This document shows, in pieces, positions 17,365-34,424 of a stretch of 59,730 bases of DNA; positions within the stretch are counted from its first letter, which is position 1, and each line of letters opens with the position of its first letter. The stretch comes from Chloroflexota bacterium (GTDB lineage: Bacteria > Chloroflexota > Dehalococcoidia > Lucifugimonadales > UBA2985), in NCBI GenBank assembly GCA_043816345.1, contig JBDRIA010000013.1, forward strand, positions 1 to 59,730, in the 5' to 3' direction. Made by a program: the position numbers and the translations under genes. The notes beneath the pieces were generated by a model. It searched no databases, had not been told where the DNA came from, and was given only the letters and a program-made list of their open reading frames with translations.

Positions 17365-17444
17365 TGGGGTGAGCGGAGGGATTTGAACCCTCGATCTCCA
17401 GGGCCACAACCTGGCGCCTTAGACCTAGCTTGGCCACGCCCACC
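17365..17444 (-). tRNA. tRNA-His (GTG) with encoded CCA and a G-1 residue
   Basis: Manual fold. Acceptor GTGGGCG/CGCTCAC preceded by an extra G. Anticodon arm CCAGG-TTGTGGC-CCTGG. T arm GAGGG-TTCAAAT-CCCTC. Confidence 0.9.
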
Positions 17445-17470
17445 ACGATGATGGCCAGCAGACGAGGCGA

Positions 17471-17499
17471 ATTCTAGCATTGCCCCTATGGGAGGTCAA
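17471..17499 (-). promoter_or_regulatory. Sigma70-like promoter of tRNA-His
   Basis: The minus strand reads TTGACC, 17 nt, TAGAAT, about 20 nt upstream of the mature tRNA 5' end. Confidence 0.55.
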
Positions 17500-17504
17500 G
17501 GAGA

Positions 17505-17520
17505 GCGTCTTGCATAATTC
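17505..17520 (+). promoter_or_regulatory. Copy 1 of the conserved 16-nt motif GCGTCTTGCATAaTTC
   Basis: The same motif occurs at 19689..19704, at 23046..23061, and inverted at 19664..19679. Followed by TACAAT (17540) and GGAGG (17561). Confidence 0.5.
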
Positions 17521-17571
17521 CCTGGATATGGAGTTGGGGTACAATGAGCGCATCTCGCTTGGAGGTGCGGC

Positions 17572-18144
17572 ATGTCGTGGGTTGAAATGCTTGGAATCAT
17601 CGGTTTTGGGCTGGCTGTAGTGGCAACAGTCTTGACGGCTCTTCAAATGTGGATGTCACGCCCCCAAGTAAAGTGCTTCTTTCACAGGCAGGAACTGGAT
17701 GCGGGAGTGTATTTAATAGGCATGGTTGGTAATAAACCACCCCGGAGAAGGTTCCAATCTCTTGGGTTCACGAGAACTGAGCCGCATGTTGTCGTCATGC
17801 TCAAGATATTCAGGCCAGGTAGTGGAACCTTGTTGAGCGAGCACATAGTACCACTGCGCTCGCCAGAAGAGATGAATGCTACGGACAAACTTGCGTATCG
17901 GGCAAGTTTGCCACCAAGTGACATGATGCATATGTTTGGAGTTGTCGCTTGGCCGAAGGGTGCAGACGGTGCCTATGCCGATATTCCCAATTCAGGCAAC
18001 CCCCCTCTTCGGCTTCCCGAAGGAACTTGCAGAATTGAAGTAGAAATAGTCATTACAGGAGTCCCTGTCAAACACGAGGCAAGTGCAATCATTGGGAAAG
18101 ACCCCGCTTCTACTAAATGGTTGGCAGGGAAAAACGTTATTTAA
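17572..18144 (+). CDS. Hypothetical N-terminally membrane-anchored protein
   Basis: GGAGG 6 nt before the ATG and one N-terminal TM helix. The C-terminal region aligns by eye with ORF 26716..27282. The stop lies inside the IS end. Confidence 0.55.
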   Translation: MSWVEMLGIIGFGLAVVATVLTALQMWMSRPQVKCFFHRQELDAGVYLIGMVGNKPPRRRFQSLGFTRTEPHVVVMLKIFRPGSGTLLSEHIVPLRSPEEMNATDKLAYRASLPPSDMMHMFGVVAWPKGADGAYADIPNSGNPPLRLPEGTCRIEVEIVITGVPVKHEASAIIGKDPASTKWLAGKNVI

Positions 18145-19108
18145 CTACCTGCATCGCAATGAGAGACAGATAACAATGAGCCGTAACTTTCCGAATACCC
18201 CGCACAGTGATGTGATTCAAGGAGCGTTGCCCCTTGAGCCTAGAGTTGACCCGTTCCACGCTGGAACGTTGGCGATACAACGCCTGCCATCCGGCGGTCT
18301 GTCGCATCTCCGCAACATCGGCGGCGTATCGTTTGTGGCTAGCGTTGGGGTCAATGATAGGCTGCGCCCTGTACTGCCGCTTGATAAGATTGTAAAGGGG
18401 TTTGCCAGAGTACCCCTTATCAGCCATAGCATACTTGGGACGGAACTTGCTCGTAGTGAACCTCGCTTCACTGAGTACATTGGAGGCCCTGCTAGCGTCG
18501 TGAGCATTACCAGGGCTGACGTTGGCAGCTATGGGGAGTTCGCTTTCGCAGTCAACCAACAGGTGGAGTTTCCAGCCAAGAGTGAACTCCGTTTTCCCGT
18601 GTGTGTTCTTCTTGACACTCCACCCTGCTTCTTTGTCAGAAGGATTGGGCTTACCCCCGTTGACCCATCCCCTGAGAGTGGTGGAGTCCAGGGCTACCCT
18701 CTGGCCGAACCCTGGGATAGTTTGGTAGTGCTGACGCACCAACCGCCTAGACACATCCTTCAACTTTGCTGCTATCTGATACTTGGAGAGCCTAGCGAAG
18801 AACCGAGAGAACGTGGCCTCATGGGGGATGCAGTTGGGGGAAGGAATGCCACAAGCTTCAGCGATGAAGGGGTTGTTCTGAAGGGTGCGAATGAGGGCGG
18901 CGGTAGATTCCAAGCCCATGACGTACTTAGCTACCAAGCAATGCCGGAGCACTTCTACGGGATGCCCTTTGGGGCCACGGCGCATAGGGCCGATGAGGGC
19001 TTGCAGAAGGGGTTCATCGTCCAGACTGTCAAAGACACCCCGAAGCTGGGCGACAATCGGCGGTGCTTGAACGGCAACGCCAACGGCGGTATCATTAAGT
19101 GTGACCAC
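18137..19108 (-). CDS. DDE transposase (IS4/IS5 superfamily)
   Basis: D (ALDSTTL), D (AMADKGYS) and E (YRQRSSVERVNSRLK) regions are characteristic. Confidence 0.85.
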   Translation of the reverse strand: MVTLNDTAVGVAVQAPPIVAQLRGVFDSLDDEPLLQALIGPMRRGPKGHPVEVLRHCLVAKYVMGLESTAALIRTLQNNPFIAEACGIPSPNCIPHEATFSRFFARLSKYQIAAKLKDVSRRLVRQHYQTIPGFGQRVALDSTTLRGWVNGGKPNPSDKEAGWSVKKNTHGKTEFTLGWKLHLLVDCESELPIAANVSPGNAHDASRASNVLSEARFTTSKFRPKYAMADKGYSGKPLYNLIKRQYRAQPIIDPNASHKRYAADVAEMRQTAGWQALYRQRSSVERVNSRLKGQRSLNHITVRGIRKVTAHCYLSLIAMQVVK

Positions 19109-19306: not shown

Positions 19307-19380
19307 TGGCTGCGGAGGTGGGAATCGAACCCACGTCTCCAGGTTGACGGCCAGGCGTGCTACCGTTACACCACTCCGCA
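19307..19380 (-). tRNA. tRNA-like gene with anticodon position GTC (Asp) but a non-canonical anticodon arm
   Basis: Perfect acceptor (TGCGGAG/CTCCGCA, G73, CCA), D arm and T arm (GTGGG-TTCGATT-CCCAC). The anticodon stem CCTGG/CCTGG has a central T-T mismatch. The loop CCGTCAA has C at position 33. Confidence 0.6.
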
Positions 19381-19476
19381 GTGTTCTGGGGCTAGTCGTT
19401 TAGCTTGTCGGCAGGCGACTAGCCCTGTCTTCATTCCTAATGTAACCCAGGTTTGCACGGAGGAGGCAAGGGAAAC

Positions 19477-19665
19477 ATGGCCTATTTTTTGCCAATCAAT
19501 GTGAATTATTTCACGCTAGGCATGGCCGCAAAAGAAATCGGCGTGCATAAGGTGACACTATGGCGGTGGATTAGAGATGGGAAACTGGAAACCTACCGCG
19601 TTGGCAGGGAAGTACTGATTGGAAAAGACACGGTAGAACGTCTAAAACAGGAGAGGACACAGTGA
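19477..19665 (+). CDS. Excisionase/MerR-like helix-turn-helix DNA-binding protein
   Basis: FTLGMAAKEIGVHKVTLWRWIRDGKLETYRVGREVLI is the classic excisionase-family HTH. GGAGGAGG lies upstream. Confidence 0.7.
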   Translation: MAYFLPINVNYFTLGMAAKEIGVHKVTLWRWIRDGKLETYRVGREVLIGKDTVERLKQERTQ

Positions 19666-19704
19666 AATATGCAAGACGCTCAAGGAGTGCGTCTTGCATA
19701 TTTC
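19664..19704. promoter_or_regulatory. Perfect inverted repeat of the 16-nt motif (arms 19664..19679 and 19689..19704, 9-nt loop)
   Basis: GAAATATGCAAGACGC-tcaaggagt-GCGTCTTGCATATTTC. It starts 1 nt into the xis-like stop codon and precedes TACAAT at 19714. Confidence 0.8.
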
Positions 19705-19750: not shown

Positions 19751-20278
19751 ATGCCTGGCTCACGACCTATCACCAGGGTCTACACCCGAGGAGGTACGGA
19801 AGACTGGTGGGCGTATAGCGTGCGGTGTCGACCGCATTCACTCTGGAGGGTCATACCAGGGCTAGGGCCATTGATAATGTTTCGTAATGGGGCGTTAGTA
19901 ACTTTTGAGCTGACCTTCAAACTTCTGAGACAAAGTGATGGTGCACCAGGCAGCCTACCACATGAATGTGAGCTGAGCTTCTATCTTGGTGATAAACGAG
20001 TAGGCGGGCAAAACATCTCCTTCGTAATGCCTACTAAGGGCAAGAGAACGACAGCAAGGGCACAACCACATTTCCTCAATGGACTGGGGCATGCTTGGGT
20101 TGCTATCGAGCACAGTGAGGCTGCGTATTCCTTCGACGTATGGGAGCCAGCGTACAGCATCGTCAACTGGGGAATGCTTATATTGTCTGCTGGCCTTGGG
20201 GGGCTACTCGGGTTTCTTTTGGCATTATTGGTTGGAGACTCTGAAGTGCAATCAGAGACAGATAACAATGAACAGTGA
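19751..20278 (+). CDS. Hypothetical protein with a C-terminal TM helix, its 3' end fused into an IS remnant
   Basis: GGAGG 10 nt before ATG 19751. The last 9 codons are encoded by the truncated IS copy. The start is uncertain (the ORF opens at 19694). Confidence 0.45.
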   Translation: MPGSRPITRVYTRGGTEDWWAYSVRCRPHSLWRVIPGLGPLIMFRNGALVTFELTFKLLRQSDGAPGSLPHECELSFYLGDKRVGGQNISFVMPTKGKRTTARAQPHFLNGLGHAWVAIEHSEAAYSFDVWEPAYSIVNWGMLILSAGLGGLLGFLLALLVGDSEVQSETDNNEQ

Positions 20279-20509
20279 CCTTCCGAATACCCCGTACCCT
20301 GATATGGTTGAGGGAGCGTTGCCCCTTAAGACGGGAGTACGCACGCTCGACGCTAACCCTCTGCTTGTACAGCGCTTGCCATCCTGCGGTCTGCCGCATC
20401 TCCGCAACCTCAGCGGCGTATCGTTTGTGGCTAGCATTTGGGTCAATGATGGGCTGCGCCCTGTACTGCCGCTTGATGAGGTTGTGCAGGGGCTTGCCAG
20501 AGTATCCCT
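20248..20509 (-). pseudogene. Truncated copy of the 18145..19300 IS (transposase C-terminal about 85 codons only)
   Basis: Aligns by eye with 18156..18420. Encodes ..MRQTAGWQALYKQRVSVERAYSRLKGQRSLNHIRVRGIRKVTVHCYLSLIA. Confidence 0.8.
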
Positions 20510-20595: not shown

Positions 20596-21378
20596 CTACG
20601 AGAAGCCTTCGTCTTCTGTCTGCGGTGCGGTATCTGATTGGGGTACCAGGTATGTGCGCTGTGCGCGCCTGAGAAACACAGTCCCCACTGCGCTCCATAC
20701 TTCCCAGAAGTCCTCTTCTGGCATATGGGCTGCATCCTCTAGGGTAATGCCCAAGAACTGTGTTGGGGGATTATTTGCAATCCTTTGTCCATTTGGCCTG
20801 TGAGCGAGTTGAGCACCTGTACCATCTGGGTTCTGCACAGGACGCTGTGGTAAAGCCATCCCTGTGGACTTCTGGTTCAGGGATTTGCCGCGCATTCCCC
20901 GTCTTCGGGGTACATCCACAGTCTGAACTCCAGCTTCCCGGCAAAGTCCCAGGAAGAGCATGACCTGGCGGCCGTGCTGAGACCTGGGGGTATACCGCTG
21001 AAATGCGTTCATTATGCGTTCCTGGGGGTCTTTGCTGGGATCTATGCTCTCGAAGTCGTCAGCATAGGCCCTGCGGATAGTCCTCTCCAGAAGTTGCCGG
21101 TATTCATCCTCGGTGCTACCGGCAAGGCCCCTTAGTGTGTCTGTGGGTTCATCCTTGTCCGTAACAAGATCGAGGAAGCGCAGGGTGGCAAATACTCTAG
21201 GGATGATGTTCTCCGAGATGCCCGCTACTTTGAGGATATCCCTGGTGATCCGTGGTGGCATATTCATCCGCCGAAGCCGGTGCATGAAGGCCTGCATATT
21301 CGCAGGTGGAGCGTACGGGCGGAAGAGTACTTCGCTTTCATTAACCATAATAAACAGGCCGTATCTTGTAAGATACAC
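20596..21378 (-). CDS. Hypothetical protein (reminiscent of DUF5343-type proteins, unverified)
   Basis: 260-aa ORF divergent from the FtsZ paralogue. The N-terminal region PPRITRDILKVAGISENIIPRVFATLRFLDLV looks like a small helical domain. Confidence 0.55.
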   Translation of the reverse strand: MYLTRYGLFIMVNESEVLFRPYAPPANMQAFMHRLRRMNMPPRITRDILKVAGISENIIPRVFATLRFLDLVTDKDEPTDTLRGLAGSTEDEYRQLLERTIRRAYADDFESIDPSKDPQERIMNAFQRYTPRSQHGRQVMLFLGLCREAGVQTVDVPRRRGMRGKSLNQKSTGMALPQRPVQNPDGTGAQLAHRPNGQRIANNPPTQFLGITLEDAAHMPEEDFWEVWSAVGTVFLRRAQRTYLVPQSDTAPQTEDEGFS

Positions 21379-21505
21379 GAATCTTAATGTTAATCGGCGA
21401 AAATGTAAAGTATGCTTTTGCAGGTGTCTGGGTATGGTACGTTAGAAACTATTGACTTGAACCAGTAACTATCCGAACATTCGGAAAAGCCAGGAGGAGG
21501 TGCCA

Positions 21506-21682
21506 ATGGCCATAACCGTAACATGGCAATCGTATGAACCATACGATCGAAGCATTCATGGTGTGGATAGTATGTACGTCACGGGTTCTGGTTCATGCGG
21601 TTGTCCAGAAAGGTGCAACGCAGGGTGCCATCGGGATAGTGCCAGGAAGTCCCGATCGGTGAGATCAGAGATATGTGCGTGA
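21506..21682 (+). CDS. Candidate Cys-rich mini-protein (58 aa)
   Basis: AGGAGGAGG lies 5 nt before the ATG. Contains a GSGSCGCPERCNAGCH cluster. Sits 71 nt upstream of the FtsZ paralogue on the same strand. Confidence 0.4.
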   Translation: MAITVTWQSYEPYDRSIHGVDSMYVTGSGSCGCPERCNAGCHRDSARKSRSVRSEICA

Positions 21683-21753
21683 TTCCATAGCCTGTACCAA
21701 CTCGTGTAGATTTGTGCCTAGGAGGCAAAGCAAGTAATAGGGAGGAGAAATCA

Positions 21754-22794
21754 ATGATTGACACTCATGTGACCGAAAACAACGTAAATCACAACCTGTC
21801 CTGGGAGAGGGCTCCAGCGCGCATAAAGGTGGTGGGAATTGGCGGAGGCGGGTGTAACTGTGTCCGACGGATGCTGGCGAACGTGGTTCCTGGTATCCAG
21901 TTCGTAATGGTCAACACGGACATCAAATCTCTAGAGCCACCTGTTCGCGATGCGGAGATTGTCCAGATAGGGGCGAAATCAACTCATGGCTGGGGTGCCG
22001 GAGGGGATGCCAAGATGGGTGAGCGCGCCGCTGAGGAATCTGAAAAGGAAATCAGAGATTCCCTCAAGAATGCAGAGATGGTTTTCATTACTTCTGGCAT
22101 GGGTGGAGGCACTGGCACAGGGGCTGCTCCATATGTCGCCTCCATAGCCAAGGATATGGGCGCTCTAGTGGTGGGGGTGGTGACAACGCCCTTCAGCTTT
22201 GAGGGGAGCCGCAGGATTGGCCAGGCCATAGCCGGCGTGGCCCGACTGCGACCTTACTTGGATAACCTGATAGTGATCCACAACGACCGCCTCCTCAAGT
22301 ACGTGGACCATGACGCAGAGATGATGGACGCTTTCAAGACGGCTGACGAAGTGGTGACTCAGGGCATATTGAGCGTTTCTGAGTTGATCAACGTCCCCGG
22401 GGAGATCAATGTGGACTTCGCTGATGTCCGCACCATTATGGGCTACCCGGGCGCCGCGCTGATGGCCATTGGCCAGGGTCGGGGTAAAATGGGAGTGGTG
22501 GATGCTGCGCGGCAGGCTATGGCCAATCCTCTTCTGAACATGTCCATAAAGGGGGCCCAGGGGGTTCTCTTCTCGGTAAAGGGAGGACATACCCTCAGCC
22601 TGGGAGGGGTCAATGCGGCGGGTGAGCTGATAGGCAATACGGTGAGAAGAAACGCCGCCATTTTCTTTGGAATGTCCGTAGATGAGAGCCTGGAGGATAC
22701 CGTGAAGCTCACTTTGATAGCAACGGGACTGAGAGAAAATGGAGTGTCTGGGTCTTTTACAGGCCGGGTACGCAATCTAATACCTGGTTTTTAG
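21754..22794 (+). CDS. FtsZ paralogue lacking the C-terminal linker and conserved tail peptide
   Basis: [18 protein letters not shown] tubulin signature, NVDFADVRT T7 loop. GGGAGGAG RBS before ATG 21754. The protein ends about 25 aa after the core. Confidence 0.9.
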   Translation: MIDTHVTENNVNHNLSWERAPARIKVVGIGGGGCNCVRRMLANVVPGIQFVMVNTDIKSLEPPVRDAEIVQIGAKSTHGWGAGGDAKMGERAAEESEKEIRDSLKNAEMVFITSGMGGGTGTGAAPYVASIAKDMGALVVGVVTTPFSFEGSRRIGQAIAGVARLRPYLDNLIVIHNDRLLKYVDHDAEMMDAFKTADEVVTQGILSVSELINVPGEINVDFADVRTIMGYPGAALMAIGQGRGKMGVVDAARQAMANPLLNMSIKGAQGVLFSVKGGHTLSLGGVNAAGELIGNTVRRNAAIFFGMSVDESLEDTVKLTLIATGLRENGVSGSFTGRVRNLIPGF

Positions 22795-22820
22795 CTATTA
22801 ATGCTAAAGGCCCCAATGTT

Positions 22821-22841
22821 CCATCCAAGGGTGGCTTTTTT
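22821..22841 (+). terminator. Weak intrinsic-terminator-like hairpin plus T-run after the FtsZ paralogue
   Basis: CCATC-caag-GGTGG followed by CTTTTTTG. Confidence 0.35.
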
Positions 22842-23045
22842 GCCTTGACCGGCCCCTTGCGCACGTTGTGCCAGTGGGTGTCCCTCGCCAACCACATGCT
22901 GTACTGGAGAGGGGCACTCACGGCTTTCCTGATTGTGCGATACAGGGAGCACTCTTTTCCTGCACTCCCTTTGGCCACGCCCATTCCACAATGGTCATCA
23001 GACGGGGCGATCTCTGGCATTGAATGACCTCTAAGGAGAAATTGA

Positions 23046-23061
23046 GCGTCTTGCATATTTC
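23046..23061 (+). promoter_or_regulatory. Copy 3 of the 16-nt motif GCGTCTTGCATATTTC
   Basis: Followed by TAGAAT at 23070..23075, then ATG 23082 only 6 nt downstream, giving a leaderless-type arrangement. Confidence 0.5.
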
Positions 23062-23075
23062 CGATGTAGTAGAAT

Positions 23076-23583: not shown

Positions 23584-23630
23584 CACCTGCATCGCAATCA
23601 GAGACAGATAGCAATGAGCCGTTACCTTCC
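23584..23630 (-). repeat. Remnant of about 47 bp from the IS left end (third copy)
   Basis: CACCTGCATCGCAATCAGAGACAGATAGCAATGAGCCGTTACCTTCC matches 18147..18193 with a few mismatches. Confidence 0.7.
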
Positions 23631-30249: not shown

Positions 30250-30550
30250 CATGGGAAGGATGCTAGCGAAGCATCCACTGTAGCAGGCTCTCCACAGCCA
30301 TGCTCTATTCCCTGGGTACGTCATCGAACTCGGGGCCATCCCATAGGCCGTATCTGAGCAGCTTGAGTCATAGCCGTCGCTGTGCTCGTTGGAGGCCACA
30401 GTTATCTGCCAGGTGGCTTTTCTGCTCTCGTATTTCTCAGTCCCATTCAAAATTACTCCAAAATTCCTCTGAGGGGGTATTGCTTTTGGGTATTGACAGT
30501 GCTATTGTAGGTGGTGATAGGTGTAAACAGGATGATTTAGGGGAGTTAAG

Positions 30551-30997
30551 GTGCAAGTTGGCCCTCTGTCCTTCTTCGGAGAACAGGAACATCGGGTGGA
30601 CCCGCAGGGTCGGATATCCTTACCGGCTCGCTTCAGGGACGCCTTCAAGGGAGGCATCGTCCTCACCCGGGGATATGACCGTTGCATCGCTGCCTATACT
30701 CCTGTCCACTGGGAGACCTTTGCCAGCCAGGTTGCCACTCTGGCCCTCAACAGGGCAAAGAATCGGAGAATGCGTCGCATGAGCTTCTCATCCGCCTATC
30801 AACTGGAGATCGACCGGCAGGGTAGGGTGCTTTTGCCCGCCTCCTTGAGGCAGTACGCCCAGATAGGCGAAGAGGTAGTCATTGCTGGGATGGGAGACTT
30901 CCTGGAGATATGGGACAAAGAGGCGTGGCTCCAGGAGAGCGCATTGCTGGATGAGGAAGCATCGCTCATCGCTGAGACTTCGGAGGAGCACCCGTGA
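30551..30997 (+). CDS. mraZ: Transcriptional regulator MraZ
   Basis: Two SpoVT/AbrB-like halves (DPQGRISLPARFR and DRQGRVLLPASLR). GTG start. Precedes rsmH. Confidence 0.9.
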   Translation: MQVGPLSFFGEQEHRVDPQGRISLPARFRDAFKGGIVLTRGYDRCIAAYTPVHWETFASQVATLALNRAKNRRMRRMSFSSAYQLEIDRQGRVLLPASLRQYAQIGEEVVIAGMGDFLEIWDKEAWLQESALLDEEASLIAETSEEHP

Positions 30998-31884
30998 GTG
31001 TTATCGTCATGGCATACCATGTCCCGGTGCTCACACAGCAGGTGGTGGAAGGCCTTCAGGTGAAGGCTGGTGGTAGCTACATTGATTGTACCGTTGGAGA
31101 AGGAGGCCACTCCAGGGCTATCCTGGAGACGCTCTCTCCTGGGGGCCGGCTCCTGGGAATAGACCTGGACCCCCAGGCCCTGGAGACGGCGGAGGAGCAG
31201 TTGCGGACTTTTCGTGAGATCTGCACCCTGACCAATGACAATTTCAGAGACCTTGGAAGGATCGCTAGGGACCAGGGGTTCTATCCCGTAGATGGCATTC
31301 TCTTCGACCTGGGTCTATCTTCTCTGCAACTGGAAGGGGAGGGGAAGGGCTTTAGCTTCCGAGCGGAGGACCCCCTGGATATGCGTTTTGATCCCCGGCA
31401 GGAGGTCACGGCCTGGGAGGTGGTCAATCGCTACTCGCAGGGGGACCTGACTCGAATCATAGGTATCTATGGTGAAGAGCACAGAGCAGGCCGCATCGCC
31501 AGGGAGATAGCGGAGAACCGTCCCATTGATACGTCTCTACAGTTGGCCCAGGTGGTGGCGAGGGCCGTCAGTCGCCCGTGGGGCCGCATTCATCCTGCCA
31601 CGCGTACTTTCCAGGCTATCCGTATGGAGGTGAACCGCGAGTTGGAGAATCTGGAATTAGCCCTGAGGCAAGCGATTTCTCTTCTGGTCCATGGTGGCAG
31701 GGTAGTGGTCATCAGCTATCACTCCCTTGAGGACCGCCTGGTCAAGAACATTTTCAGGCAGGAGAGCAGGGAGGCAAAAACCATACAGTTGGTAACCAAG
31801 AAGGTCATTTCCCCCTCCCATGAGGAGGTCAGGACAAATCGTAGGAGTCGAAGCGCCCGAATGAGGGTTGCGGAGCGTATTTAG
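30994..31884 (+). CDS. rsmH: 16S rRNA (cytosine1402-N4)-methyltransferase
   Basis: HVPVL, DCTVGEGGHS, DLGLSS and SYHSLEDR motifs. 4-nt overlap with mraZ. Confidence 0.95.
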   Translation: MSVIVMAYHVPVLTQQVVEGLQVKAGGSYIDCTVGEGGHSRAILETLSPGGRLLGIDLDPQALETAEEQLRTFREICTLTNDNFRDLGRIARDQGFYPVDGILFDLGLSSLQLEGEGKGFSFRAEDPLDMRFDPRQEVTAWEVVNRYSQGDLTRIIGIYGEEHRAGRIAREIAENRPIDTSLQLAQVVARAVSRPWGRIHPATRTFQAIRMEVNRELENLELALRQAISLLVHGGRVVVISYHSLEDRLVKNIFRQESREAKTIQLVTKKVISPSHEEVRTNRRSRSARMRVAERI

Positions 31885-32076
31885 AAGGGTAACCCCTTCT
31901 TACAGATCCTGGAACTGGTCTGGGGGTAAGGTCGCTGTGGAACGAATTACACGGTCTGATAGGGCAGGATGCCAAGTAGCGAGATCTTTGCGATTGAACC
32001 CTCTCTCTCCCTTGCGGCCTTCCCCCAGTACCAGAGGATTCTCTTTTGGACAGGAACCCAAAGGAGGTAGTGAGCA

Positions 32077-33342
32077 ATGAGAAGCGAAACGTACCATGTG
32101 GCTATAGATGTGGGAACATCCAAGGTCTGTACTCTGGTCGGGCGCTCAGATGTGGCCGGAGAGATGCAAGTCATAGGTGCTGGCACTGTTCCTTCCCGGG
32201 GCATGAAGAAGGGCATGGTAAGCAACCTCTCGGAGGTACAGCAGGTAATTCAATCCTCGCTGCGAGAGGCCGAGGCTCAGGCGGGGGTAAAAATAACCTC
32301 TGCCTATGTAGGCATCACAGGAAGCCATATCAACTACATGAACTCCCGGGCCTCTCTGGGTAACCGACGACACAATAGTCCCATTGGTTCCGGCGATGTG
32401 GCGCGGGTGGTCCAGGCTTGCTATGCCGACCGCACTGCTCCGGGCGACAGAGTCCTTCACGTGATTCCCCGTGATTACTCCGTCGATGGCAATTGGGGGG
32501 TACATGACCCCAGGGGCATGTATGCATCCACTGTGGAGGTAGAAAGCCACGTGGTTATGGCGGATCCAACATCTGTGGACAACCTGGTAGAGGCACTGCG
32601 CAGAGCCAGGGTCAAGGTAAGGGGTCTTGTGTTGGAGCCTCTGGCCAGTGCAGAAGCCATCCTCTCGGAAGATGAACGGGACATAGGGGTGGTTCTGGTG
32701 GACATTGGTGGAGGAACCAGTGACATCTCCATATTCCTGGAAGGGAGCATATGGCACACGAATGTCATTCCGGTGGGGGGCTTTCAGCTTACCCGAGATA
32801 TTTCCATCGCCTTTACTACCTTCTCTTTGGCTGCCGAAGAAGCAAAACTTAAGTACGGCCATGCCATTCCCGCTGCCGTGGATGCCCAGGAGGATTTACG
32901 GTTGCCGGGTTTCGGGAATCAGGCTTTCTCTCAGGTCTCCCGACAGAGTCTGTGCGAGGTGATTCACGATCGCGTGGATGAGCTGCTGCGCCTCATCCTT
33001 AGAGAGGTGGATAATGCTGGTCTGGATAGTGCGCCCCCAGGGGGCTTGGTATTGACCGGGGGGTCGTCCAAGCTATCGGGCATGGAGGAGTTGGCCAGCA
33101 GTATATGGCCGGGGCCGGTGAGAATCGGAGTGCCAACGGCATCGGTATGGGTGCCTCGAGACCTGGAAGACCCTGCCTTCGCTACTGCTCTGGGCCTTCT
33201 CTTCTGGGATGCAAGACATTGCCGTATGGACGGGAATGGAGTCTACGGTAATGGTGTTTCCAAGTACAGCTTCCTCGTGAAGCACTGGCTGAGCAATTTT
33301 GGACACAGGGTTCATGCACTAGCAAAGGAGGTGTCGTCGTGA
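32077..33342 (+). CDS. ftsA: Cell division protein FtsA
   Basis: Actin-fold motifs AIDVGTSKV and VDIGGGTSD. Directly precedes ftsZ with a 4-nt overlap. Confidence 0.9.
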
Positions 33343-34424
33343 CTAGTAAGTCCTATGAAAACGATGGTGTAGCCAGGATCAAGGTGGTTGGCGTGGGTGG
33401 AGGAGGGTGCAACGCCGTCTCCCGGATGTTTCGGGAGCGGGTCCAGGGGGTGGAGTACCTGGGTGTGAACACCGACGCTCAGGCTCTGATGCGTTGTGAG
33501 GTGCCCCTGAGAATCCGCATGGGTGAGAAGCTCACCCGGGGCCTTGGCGTTGGAGGAGACCCGGAGAAGGGTAAGGATTCCGCAGAAGAGAGCAGGGAGG
33601 AGATACTCGAGGCGCTGAAGGGCTCGGATATGGTGTTCATCGCCGCGGGCATGGGGGGTGGTACCGGGACGGGGGCAGCGCCGATAGTGGCGGAGATAGC
33701 CAAAGAGACGGAGGCCCTCACCATCGCCGTGGTCACCAAGCCTTTTGGCTTTGAGGGCAGTCGGCGGCGCAAGCTTGCCGAAGAGGGCATTGCCCGCCTG
33801 AAGGACAAGGTGGATACCCTTATCATCATCCCTAACGATCGTCTATTTGCCGTTTGCGACGAGAAGGTGACCATGGAGAATGCCTTCCGGATGGCCGATG
33901 ATGTGCTGAGGCAAGGGGTACAATCTATCGCCGAGCTCGTGACGGTGCCCGGGGAAATAAACCTGGACTTTGCCGACGTTAGGACGGTGATGAGCAACGC
34001 CGGTCCGGCCTGGATGGCTATTGGTCGCGGTACGGGTGAAAACAAGGCAGTTGATGCTGCTAGAGCCGCGGTGACCAGTTCACTTCTGGATGTATCCATA
34101 GATGGGGCCAAGGGCATTCTATTCAACATAACGGGAGGCACAGACCTCTCCCTGATGGAGGTCCAGGCTGCTGCCGATGTCATTCGCGCTGCGGCAGACC
34201 CTGATGCCAATATCTTCTTCGGCATGGTCACAGACCTGAAGATGGAAGATGAAGTGAAGATAACCATCATCGCCACGGGGTTCTCCTCAGAGGGTTCTTT
34301 TGTCCCCAAGGATGAGCATATCTCCCAACTCATAATGGAGGCCATTCACGACGAGTCTGAGTTGGACATACCCCCATTCCTCAGGAGGCAGCACAACTCC
34401 AGAAGGAGAGTCGGGGCTTATTAG
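33339..34424 (+). CDS. ftsZ: Cell division protein FtsZ (canonical, with C-terminal peptide)
   Basis: [19 protein letters not shown], a linker, then the DIPPFLRRQ tail. Confidence 0.95.

Follow-up and report, generated by a model that had tools for sequence, protein, structure and literature searches.

FtsZ2, as we call it here, is a second FtsZ gene that lies head-to-head with a gene of the DUF5343 family in contig JBDRIA010000013.1 (assembly GCA_043816345.1) of a Chloroflexota bacterium from the lineage Dehalococcoidia, Lucifugimonadales, UBA2985. The stretch analyzed covers 59,730 nucleotides (nt) of this contig and is called the window in the following. With a probability of roughly 0.55 the two genes are read as a native, lineage-specific dual-FtsZ unit of the peptidoglycan-less SAR202-type Chloroflexota, with DUF5343 as candidate partner of FtsZ2 and a function that is predicted. 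Because FtsZ2 is inherited with DUF5343 across related genomes, the unit appears to be a native module, accessory to division or to the cytoskeleton, and not foreign DNA.

SAR202 bacteria have no peptidoglycan, ftsW or ftsI, keep only mraZ-mraW-ftsA-ftsZ and possess an S-layer-type envelope (PMC11994032, PMC10608941). The genes on which the reading is built are the following, with lengths in amino acids (aa) and ORF standing for open reading frame.

20596..21348, minus strand: DUF5343 gene, 250 aa, divergent from FtsZ2 (PF17278, PADLOC PDC-M34A, AlphaFold, ratio of non-synonymous to synonymous substitution rates (dN/dS))
21754..22794, plus strand: FtsZ2 ORF, second FtsZ paralogue, 346 aa, full GTPase core (Pfam, TIGR00065, orthologues, dN/dS)
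33339..34424, plus strand: canonical ftsZ, 361 aa, with a DIPPFLR-type C-terminal peptide, after rsmH (30994) and ftsA (32077)

FtsZ2 and the canonical FtsZ

FtsZ2 matches the Pfam families Tubulin (PF00091; 3.5e-42, 145.3 bits) and FtsZ_C (PF12327; 1.3e-22, 80.3 bits), and with 347.7 bits it exceeds the cut-off of 295.2 bits of the NCBIfam model TIGR00065 ftsZ. An earlier interpretation made from the letters of the window, the sequence-only reading, had called the gene a second FtsZ paralogue with a complete core, which these matches bear out. Its estimate that about half of the core residues are shared with the canonical ftsZ agrees with the 53% identity found over 312 aa between the two proteins of this genome. 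The motifs GIGGGGCN, NTD, GAGG, GGGTGTG, PFSFEG, NDRL and NVDFAD are seen in the translation, including the three that had been named before (GIGGGGCN, GGGTGTG and the T7 loop NVDFADV). The GTP-binding loops T1-T6 and the catalytic T7 loop (NxDFxD) are intact and are kept in 112-120 of 120 members of the FtsZ2 clade. As the alignment shows these GTP-binding and T7 residues not to be disabled, FtsZ2 is likely an intact GTP-dependent filament former, as had been supposed. The gene is under strong purifying selection, with dN/dS of 0.05-0.18 against its orthologues; its GC content is 0.553 and its GC content at third codon positions (GC3) 0.62. A Shine-Dalgarno sequence, GGGAGGAG, is located at 21740..21747, 6 nt before the ATG.

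The canonical copy belongs to an rsmH-ftsA-ftsZ remnant of the division and cell wall (dcw) cluster at 30994..34424, with secD and secF downstream of ftsZ. FtsZ2 is not next to ftsA; it lies 10.5 kb from this remnant, beside the DUF5343 gene, and its placement outside the dcw cluster had been recognized correctly. An ORF of 160 aa at 30300-30782, in the position expected for mraZ upstream of rsmH, gave no Pfam match at E<=0.001.

Among the closest relatives of the canonical FtsZ is a protein labelled SAR202 cluster bacterium, and the named relatives of FtsZ2 are all from metagenome-assembled genomes of Chloroflexota/Dehalococcoidia. FtsZ2 has many orthologues with 70-90% identity, far above the 53% to the canonical copy of its own genome, and both genes occur on one contig in at least five SAR202/Dehalococcoidia genomes (contigs of 1,361,800, 1,964,598, 2,379,292, 313,263 and 490,447 bp). 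In the genome pairs that could be matched, identity to the copy in the window is 83-89% for the canonical FtsZ and 76-84% for FtsZ2; such similar rates of divergence fit vertical inheritance. Identity of FtsZ2 to the canonical SAR202 FtsZ is about 48%, and for the FtsZs of other phyla it amounts to about 46%, from which it follows that the duplication is old. The signatures GGCNCV and WGAGG are present in 115-116 of the 120 FtsZ2 clade members and in none of 120 canonical copies. In a neighbor-joining tree of 152 sequences the canonical SAR202 FtsZs form a clade with 99% bootstrap support, and the FtsZ2 sequences fall in a separate clade together with two representatives of 50%-identity clusters; the tree is distance-based and not maximum likelihood, and it is coarse. 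By sequence comparison FtsZ2 thus belongs to a distinct clade that is old, and did not arise by recent duplication.

Among the best representative matches were three proteins of 744-840 aa (P0361, P0362 and P0364) with two FtsZ-like stretches each, which suggest fused or tandem double FtsZs elsewhere.

The C-terminal tail of FtsZ2

22732..22791, plus strand: FtsZ2 tail, 20 aa after the core, RENGVSGSFTGRVRNLIPGF (tail comparison, 116 clade members)
22753..22791, plus strand: conserved basic-hydrophobic peptide, last 13 aa of FtsZ2, SFTGRVRNLIPGF (tail comparison)
22821..22844, plus strand: terminator-like hairpin and T-run 3' of FtsZ2, pointing to a monocistronic unit

C-terminal peptides of the [DE][ILV]Px[FY]L[RK] type bind FtsA, ZipA or SepF. 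This motif is found in 114 of 120 canonical SAR202 FtsZs versus 0 of 120 FtsZ2 clade members. The description of FtsZ2 as a protein without C-terminal tail therefore holds for the canonical peptide and not for the tail as such, since at the end of the 20 aa that follow the core there is a peptide which the orthologues conserve. Likewise, the earlier view that FtsZ2 cannot use the normal tether is plausible, with the correction that the tail appears replaced or remodelled and not absent.

In the subclade of the window the peptide follows the pattern h-x-G-[RK]-h-[RK]-x-h-h-P-G-h, begins about 8-10 residues past the core and usually forms the very C-terminus; examples are SFTGRVRNLIPGF in the window, SFSGLVRSIVPGM and AFPGKIRSIIPGL. 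More distant clade members carry other short cationic-hydrophobic ends (…GFMRKG, …NMFKKR, …SLFGRK), and some have longer tails with acidic-aromatic ends (…DWDDDFI). The core of the tail, h-h-P-G-h (LIPGF), resembles the canonical I-P-x-F (DIPPF), and so the tail may be a remodelled canonical peptide.

Linkage of FtsZ2 and DUF5343

Co-occurrence of the DUF5343 homologue with FtsZ2 across relatives, which the sequence-only reading had left as a point to check, is confirmed, as the DUF5343 gene adjoins FtsZ2 head-to-head in 23 of the 29 loci examined. Where FtsZ2 identity is at least 75%, the pair is kept in 21 of 23 loci with differing flanks. Two remote lineages keep it as well, one with a DUF5343 protein only about 24% identical (L006) and one whose DUF5343 protein gives a weak Pfam match (L058). 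No other FtsZ2 neighbor is common to more than 11 of 24 loci. DUF5343 proteins that are further removed (39-50% identity) have no FtsZ beside them, so that the linkage belongs to a single subfamily of DUF5343.

Several loci hold further genes. A third, tail-less FtsZ-like gene of 326 aa (L021:4821-5801) is located in tandem upstream of the FtsZ2 of that locus (L021:5950-7029), in the place of the DUF5343 gene; its T3 (GRNVQ), T4 (GMGGSTGTN) and T7 (MGVDFGD) loops are degenerate, and it may thus be a pseudo-GTPase paralogue. Directly downstream of FtsZ2, a conserved gene of about 250 aa without Pfam match is present at L006:9411-10160 and L058:7272-8027 and may be a further lineage-specific partner. 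Upstream of DUF5343 paralogues without linkage to FtsZ there are small divergent ORFs (L054:5560-5808, L056:5597-5836, L055:4980-5539), with insertion sequence (IS) elements nearby; two of these ORFs, of 82 and 79 aa, show weak similarity to each other (E 6e-5).

The DUF5343 protein

The neighbor had been described as a divergent 260-aa unknown protein at 20596..21378. The divergent ORF is present and belongs to DUF5343, with a match to PF17278 of 6e-14 and 52.9 bits (threshold 27) over model positions 1-136 of 140; the same family is matched by 31 of 31 aligned homologues. Its start is most likely the ATG at 21348 (250 aa) and not the GTG at 21378, as indicated by the N-termini of the orthologues, by P0121 as the called protein and by a promoter-like site that is conserved at 21409..21381. 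The dN/dS is 0.07-0.25, the GC content 0.551 and GC3 0.58.

Two AlphaFold models of the protein have mean predicted local distance difference test (pLDDT) values of 78.7 and 91.0. The N-terminal domain of about 140 aa is modelled confidently (pLDDT 91, predicted template modelling score 0.85) and contains a helix-turn-helix with a β-hairpin, a part of it winged-helix-like. It is followed by a disordered Arg-rich basic linker, a short conserved C-terminal helical hairpin and an acidic end. Foldseek searches of the models against PDB and BFVD returned nothing significant (best E 0.18-0.27), the best of the non-significant matches being DEAH helicases, in their winged-helix/ratchet region, and several winged helix-turn-helix regulators. 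A sequence-profile search of the PDB gave nothing. In the literature searched in full text there was no mention of DUF5343, nor of PDC-M34.

The shared promoter region and the FtsZ2 leader

The region between the two genes is 345-459 nt long. Promoter blocks and a box of 15 nt are found in all 20 aligned loci, i.e. the window and 19 orthologous loci.

21381..21409, minus strand: promoter-like site of the DUF5343 gene, TTTACA-17-TAAGAT (conserved blocks TGTAAA and ATCTTA, 20-locus alignment)
21427..21441, plus strand: 15-nt box TCTGGGTATGGTACG, candidate operator between the divergent promoters, matching the consensus with no mismatch
21452..21480, plus strand: putative FtsZ2 promoter, -35 TTGACT, 17-nt spacer, -10 GAACAT (alignment of 20 intergenic regions)
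21487..21753, plus strand: long 5' leader of FtsZ2 with AAYCGTAWCA patch and Shine-Dalgarno sequence GGGAGGAG; about 215-330 nt in orthologues
21506..21682, plus strand: Cys-rich mini-ORF of 58 codons within the leader; present but without conservation, probably no gene

The FtsZ2 promoter is given as putative because a promoter scan of the window scored it under the threshold; its -35 element TTGACT is invariant, and the -10 element reads GAATAT in many orthologues. The predicted transcription starts are at about 21374 on the minus strand and about 21487 on the plus strand. The box consensus TCTGGRTATGRTACG occurs exactly once per locus in the 19 orthologous loci and as a single copy in the window. 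Centromere-like repeats of the box were rejected on the ground of this one copy per locus. At L013:2268-3068 about 390 nt are inserted in the FtsZ2 leader, and within them the box recurs as an imperfect second copy (TCTGGATATGATATG).

The mini-ORF exists as the sequence-only reading had reported it, with AGGAGGAGG 5 nt before the ATG and the Cys cluster CGCPERCNAGCH; its GC3 is 0.46. The 58-aa peptide had no tblastn match in any fetched locus, and no leader ORF related to it was found in 19 orthologous loci. In L001, a 90%-identical relative, the ATG aligned to its start runs for only 6 codons, and in L002 both Shine-Dalgarno sequence and ATG are lost. Without a homologue in any locus, and with start or Shine-Dalgarno sequence lost in close relatives, the mini-ORF was rejected as a gene; probably the long leader of FtsZ2 contains it by chance. 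The idea that it forms part of a module with FtsZ2 was thus given up, lack of conservation being the very finding that the sequence-only reading had named as speaking against it.

Conservation in the leader is confined to a few patches. The patch AAYCGTAWCA is conserved near its 5' end (21487-21560 in the window and in the orthologous leaders), and a Shine-Dalgarno-like GGAGGTGC occurs in about half of the orthologous leaders without a conserved ORF. A structured RNA or riboswitch is not backed by the data: an Rfam search of the leader gave no match and the folding energy is ordinary (z-score of the minimum free energy -0.37 in the window, range -2.6 to +1.7 across leaders).

Proposed function and alternative explanations

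FtsZ2 would form GTP-dependent filaments that reach the membrane or the ring by a route other than FtsA. By analogy with some Mycoplasma and Odinarchaeota FtsZs, this route might be direct binding through the cationic-hydrophobic tail, or else an adaptor. FtsZs without the canonical peptide are reported or proposed to bind the membrane directly (bioRxiv 10.1101/2023.08.29.555414; PMC12583498). DUF5343 would be the best adaptor candidate and may also act as local regulator at the 15-nt box. FtsZ2, beside the canonical FtsZ or co-assembled with it, would divide or shape the peptidoglycan-less cell, in parallel to the FtsZ1/FtsZ2 pairs of archaea and of plastids. On this reading, the most economical one, FtsZ2 may have been retargeted through its new tail, with DUF5343 as a co-regulated partner that could serve as regulator, adaptor or both.

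A number of observations weigh against this native dual-FtsZ unit. In the coarse neighbor-joining tree the strict monophyly of the sampled FtsZ2 set has 16% bootstrap support, and two representative sequences nest inside it. The tail is variable in the wider clade, with 9 of 116 members essentially tail-less and the h-h-P-x core in only 58. The hydrophobic moment of the 13-aa tail is not separable from that of non-membrane peptides, a measure that is uninformative for such short peptides, and direct membrane binding thus stays an analogy with the Mycoplasma and Odinarchaeota FtsZs. Six of the 29 loci have no adjacent DUF5343 gene: the tail-less paralogues L057 and L059, L060 among housekeeping genes, L005 with a 544-aa unknown protein upstream, L022 on a short contig, and L021, which has the same FtsZ2 tail. 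DUF5343 paralogues are also found without nearby FtsZ. The DUF5343 domain matches the PADLOC candidate phage-defence model PDC-M34A (2.8e-8; 31 of 31 members), and its modelled fold is without significant structural neighbor, so that binding of DNA or of FtsZ is unproven. Polymerization, localization and any contact between FtsZ2 and DUF5343 we infer from the genes.

A more specific form of the proposal, to be regarded as tentative, is that DUF5343 is an unrecognized FtsZ-binding adaptor or regulator and that the pair FtsZ2-DUF5343 corresponds, in bacteria, to the constriction system of archaeal FtsZ2, having arisen or been retained in Chloroflexota that lost peptidoglycan. If true, it would be an independent case of two FtsZs in the absence of an inward-growing wall, and would provide the first function for the DUF5343 family.

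It is rather unlikely that DUF5343 is a mere local transcription factor without physical link to FtsZ2, which would then act alone or with FtsA or SepF and carry a degenerate canonical peptide as its tail. Such a regulator would suit the divergent layout with a conserved box between the promoters, the winged-helix-like subdomain of the DUF5343 model, the FtsZ2 of L021 that has the same tail and no DUF5343 gene next to it, and the likeness of LIPGF to DIPPF. The long disordered basic linker, the second conserved module at the C-terminus and the acidic end of the protein are, however, atypical of a simple repressor, and none of the known DNA-binding folds was matched significantly by the domain.

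TubZRC-like segregation, in which a winged-helix DUF5343 protein bound to the 15-nt box as centromere would couple DNA to treadmilling FtsZ2 in a chromosomal or ex-plasmid partition system, is unlikely. The two-gene layout of filament and adaptor, the invariant DNA box adjoining both genes, the Arg-rich linker and the weak winged-helix-type fold matches of DUF5343 (NsrR, FadR, IclR-like; E 0.7-1.5) would agree with it, but these fold matches are not significant and each locus has a single box instead of an iterated array. The genes are divergent and not an operon, they are chromosomal, on megabase contigs, and plasmid or phage relatives were not found. FtsZ2 itself is a bona fide FtsZ, with 18.4 bits against Tubulin_2 (cut-off 27) and a match to the PhuZ family phrog_4733 of E 0.0053 over 120 aa only, and does not belong to the TubZ/PhuZ families.

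The native dual-FtsZ unit, which we continue to prefer, would matter for several reasons. SAR202 bacteria rank with the most abundant bacteria in the dark ocean and live without peptidoglycan, FtsW and FtsI; a second FtsZ that is conserved, has a tail of its own and comes with a dedicated partner gene is a concrete candidate for their constriction machinery. FtsZ2 would also serve as a bacterial test of the idea, derived from archaea, that cells whose division is not driven by wall ingrowth need a second FtsZ, and the linkage would give DUF5343 its first functional context. Extra FtsZ copies and FtsZs without canonical peptide are kinds already known; the literature searched contained no description of a clade of FtsZs in SAR202/Dehalococcoidia that is divergent and conserved, has a tail of its own and is paired with a dedicated DUF5343 partner.

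Mobile DNA and composition of the region

17365..17443: tRNA-His
18137..19108: IS transposase gene (DDE_Tnp_1/DUF772), apparently full-length
19307..19380: tRNA-Asp
20239..20509, minus strand: truncated IS copy, 271 nt
23585..23630: IS-end remnant, 46 nt, right of the FtsZ2 unit

Truncated IS copies had been reported on both sides of the unit. The left side does hold the truncated copy of 271 nt, together with the apparently full-length transposase gene; on the right there is only the remnant of 46 nt. The pieces are fragments of a local IS and record local rearrangement, not acquisition. An excisionase-like HTH_17 ORF at 19453-19665 beside tRNA-Asp may be the remnant of an integrative element; there was no integrase among the ORFs scanned in the region. 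A sequence of about 85 nt beside tRNA-His (17440-17525) recurs at 22981..23065, and its 25-nt core at 19680-19704. Each copy of the repeat or core is followed by a low-GC ORF (190, 194 and 163 aa) and then by an IS end (18147, 20239, 23585). The three ORFs are not related to each other, and their being paralogues is ruled out.

The GC3 of FtsZ2 and DUF5343 (0.58-0.62) resembles that of ftsA (0.60, with GC 0.56) and the canonical ftsZ (0.68, with GC 0.58). The low regional GC is due to the adjacent unknown ORFs, with GC of 0.49-0.52 and GC3 of about 0.48. An origin from a plasmid, phage or virus was rejected after tblastn and a pattern scan that were negative except for one weak match: DUF5343 was missing from 72,556 plasmids and from 50,697 phages and gave the one weak match in IMG/VR, while FtsZ2 had none above 60% identity on plasmids or phages. 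FtsZ2 loci are found on chromosomal contigs of up to 4 Mb. Of the marks of genomic-island cargo, i.e. foreign composition, travelling mobility genes and patchy distribution, the pair has none. Besides DUF5343, which matches component A of the multi-gene candidate PDC-M34, six proteins of the region (FtsZ2, the mini-ORF and four neighboring ORFs) were compared with the PADLOC models, and none of them gave a match.

The sequence-only reading had placed FtsZ2 on acquired DNA as a possible conflict module, an assignment that the presence of the pair in many SAR202/Dehalococcoidia genomes, its native-like GC3, its dN/dS of 0.05-0.25 and the lack of plasmid or phage relatives do not sustain. An acquired accessory, conflict or defence module on a mobile island is accordingly very unlikely, even with the IS copies and fragments, two tRNA genes and excisionase-like ORF nearby, the lower regional GC, the varying flanks of the pair, the PDC-M34A match of all DUF5343 members tested and the IS elements near DUF5343 paralogues, given that FtsZ2 diverges at a rate near that of the canonical FtsZ, that no integrase, phage or plasmid genes travel with the pair, that the low GC belongs to the flanking ORFs, that FtsZ2 itself is without PADLOC match, and that the relative L001 has the same chromosomal neighbors (PIG-L, peptidase M17, AAA_33) within 10 kb.

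Comparison with known systems

Truncated extra FtsZ copies of Alphaproteobacteria are recent, lineage-restricted and close to the FtsZ of their host. Those of Magnetospirillum (FtsZm) and of Agrobacterium/Sinorhizobium (FtsZ2), for example, are not known to carry the C-terminal linker and peptide. The SAR202 FtsZ2 differs from them in belonging to a divergent clade of old origin (about 48% identity), which has a conserved tail of its own and a partner gene.

The type III partition system TubZ-TubR-tubC and the phage protein PhuZ share with the SAR202 pair a GTPase of the tubulin/FtsZ fold, a small and possibly winged-helix protein and a conserved DNA site. They differ from it in that FtsZ2 is a true FtsZ by hidden Markov models and chromosomal, with divergent genes, a single box and no plasmid or phage relatives found.

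FtsZs of the Mycoplasma group come from wall-less bacteria, have lost the FtsA-binding peptide and carry a short hydrophobic/cationic extension that is proposed to bind the membrane. There the protein is the sole FtsZ, whereas SAR202 has it as an additional copy and keeps the canonical FtsA-FtsZ pair as well; the extension is amphipathic in the Mycoplasma group, and the 13-aa tail of SAR202 contains Pro-Gly and has a hydrophobic moment that does not set it apart from non-membrane peptides.

In the plastid FtsZ1-FtsZ2 pair of plants and algae, which is derived from cyanobacteria, one paralogue likewise keeps the C-terminal core peptide and the other is without it. Plastid FtsZ1 and FtsZ2 probably co-assemble in one ring. 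The lineage is another one, and so is the tail sequence compared with the SAR202 FtsZ2.

Archaea with S-layer-only envelopes have two FtsZs and those with pseudomurein one, and the archaeal FtsZ2 acts in constriction (bioRxiv 10.1101/2020.06.04.133736). The SAR202 case differs from the archaeal dual FtsZ (FtsZ1/FtsZ2 of Haloferax volcanii; Odinarchaeota) as an independent bacterial duplication, judged in a comparison among bacterial FtsZs from about 46% identity to other phyla and about 48% to its own canonical copy; its partner is DUF5343 and not SepF. The two cases are alike in having two bona fide FtsZs under an S-layer envelope without murein-type wall, and in paralogues that differ in their tails and, for SAR202 by prediction, in their route to the membrane.

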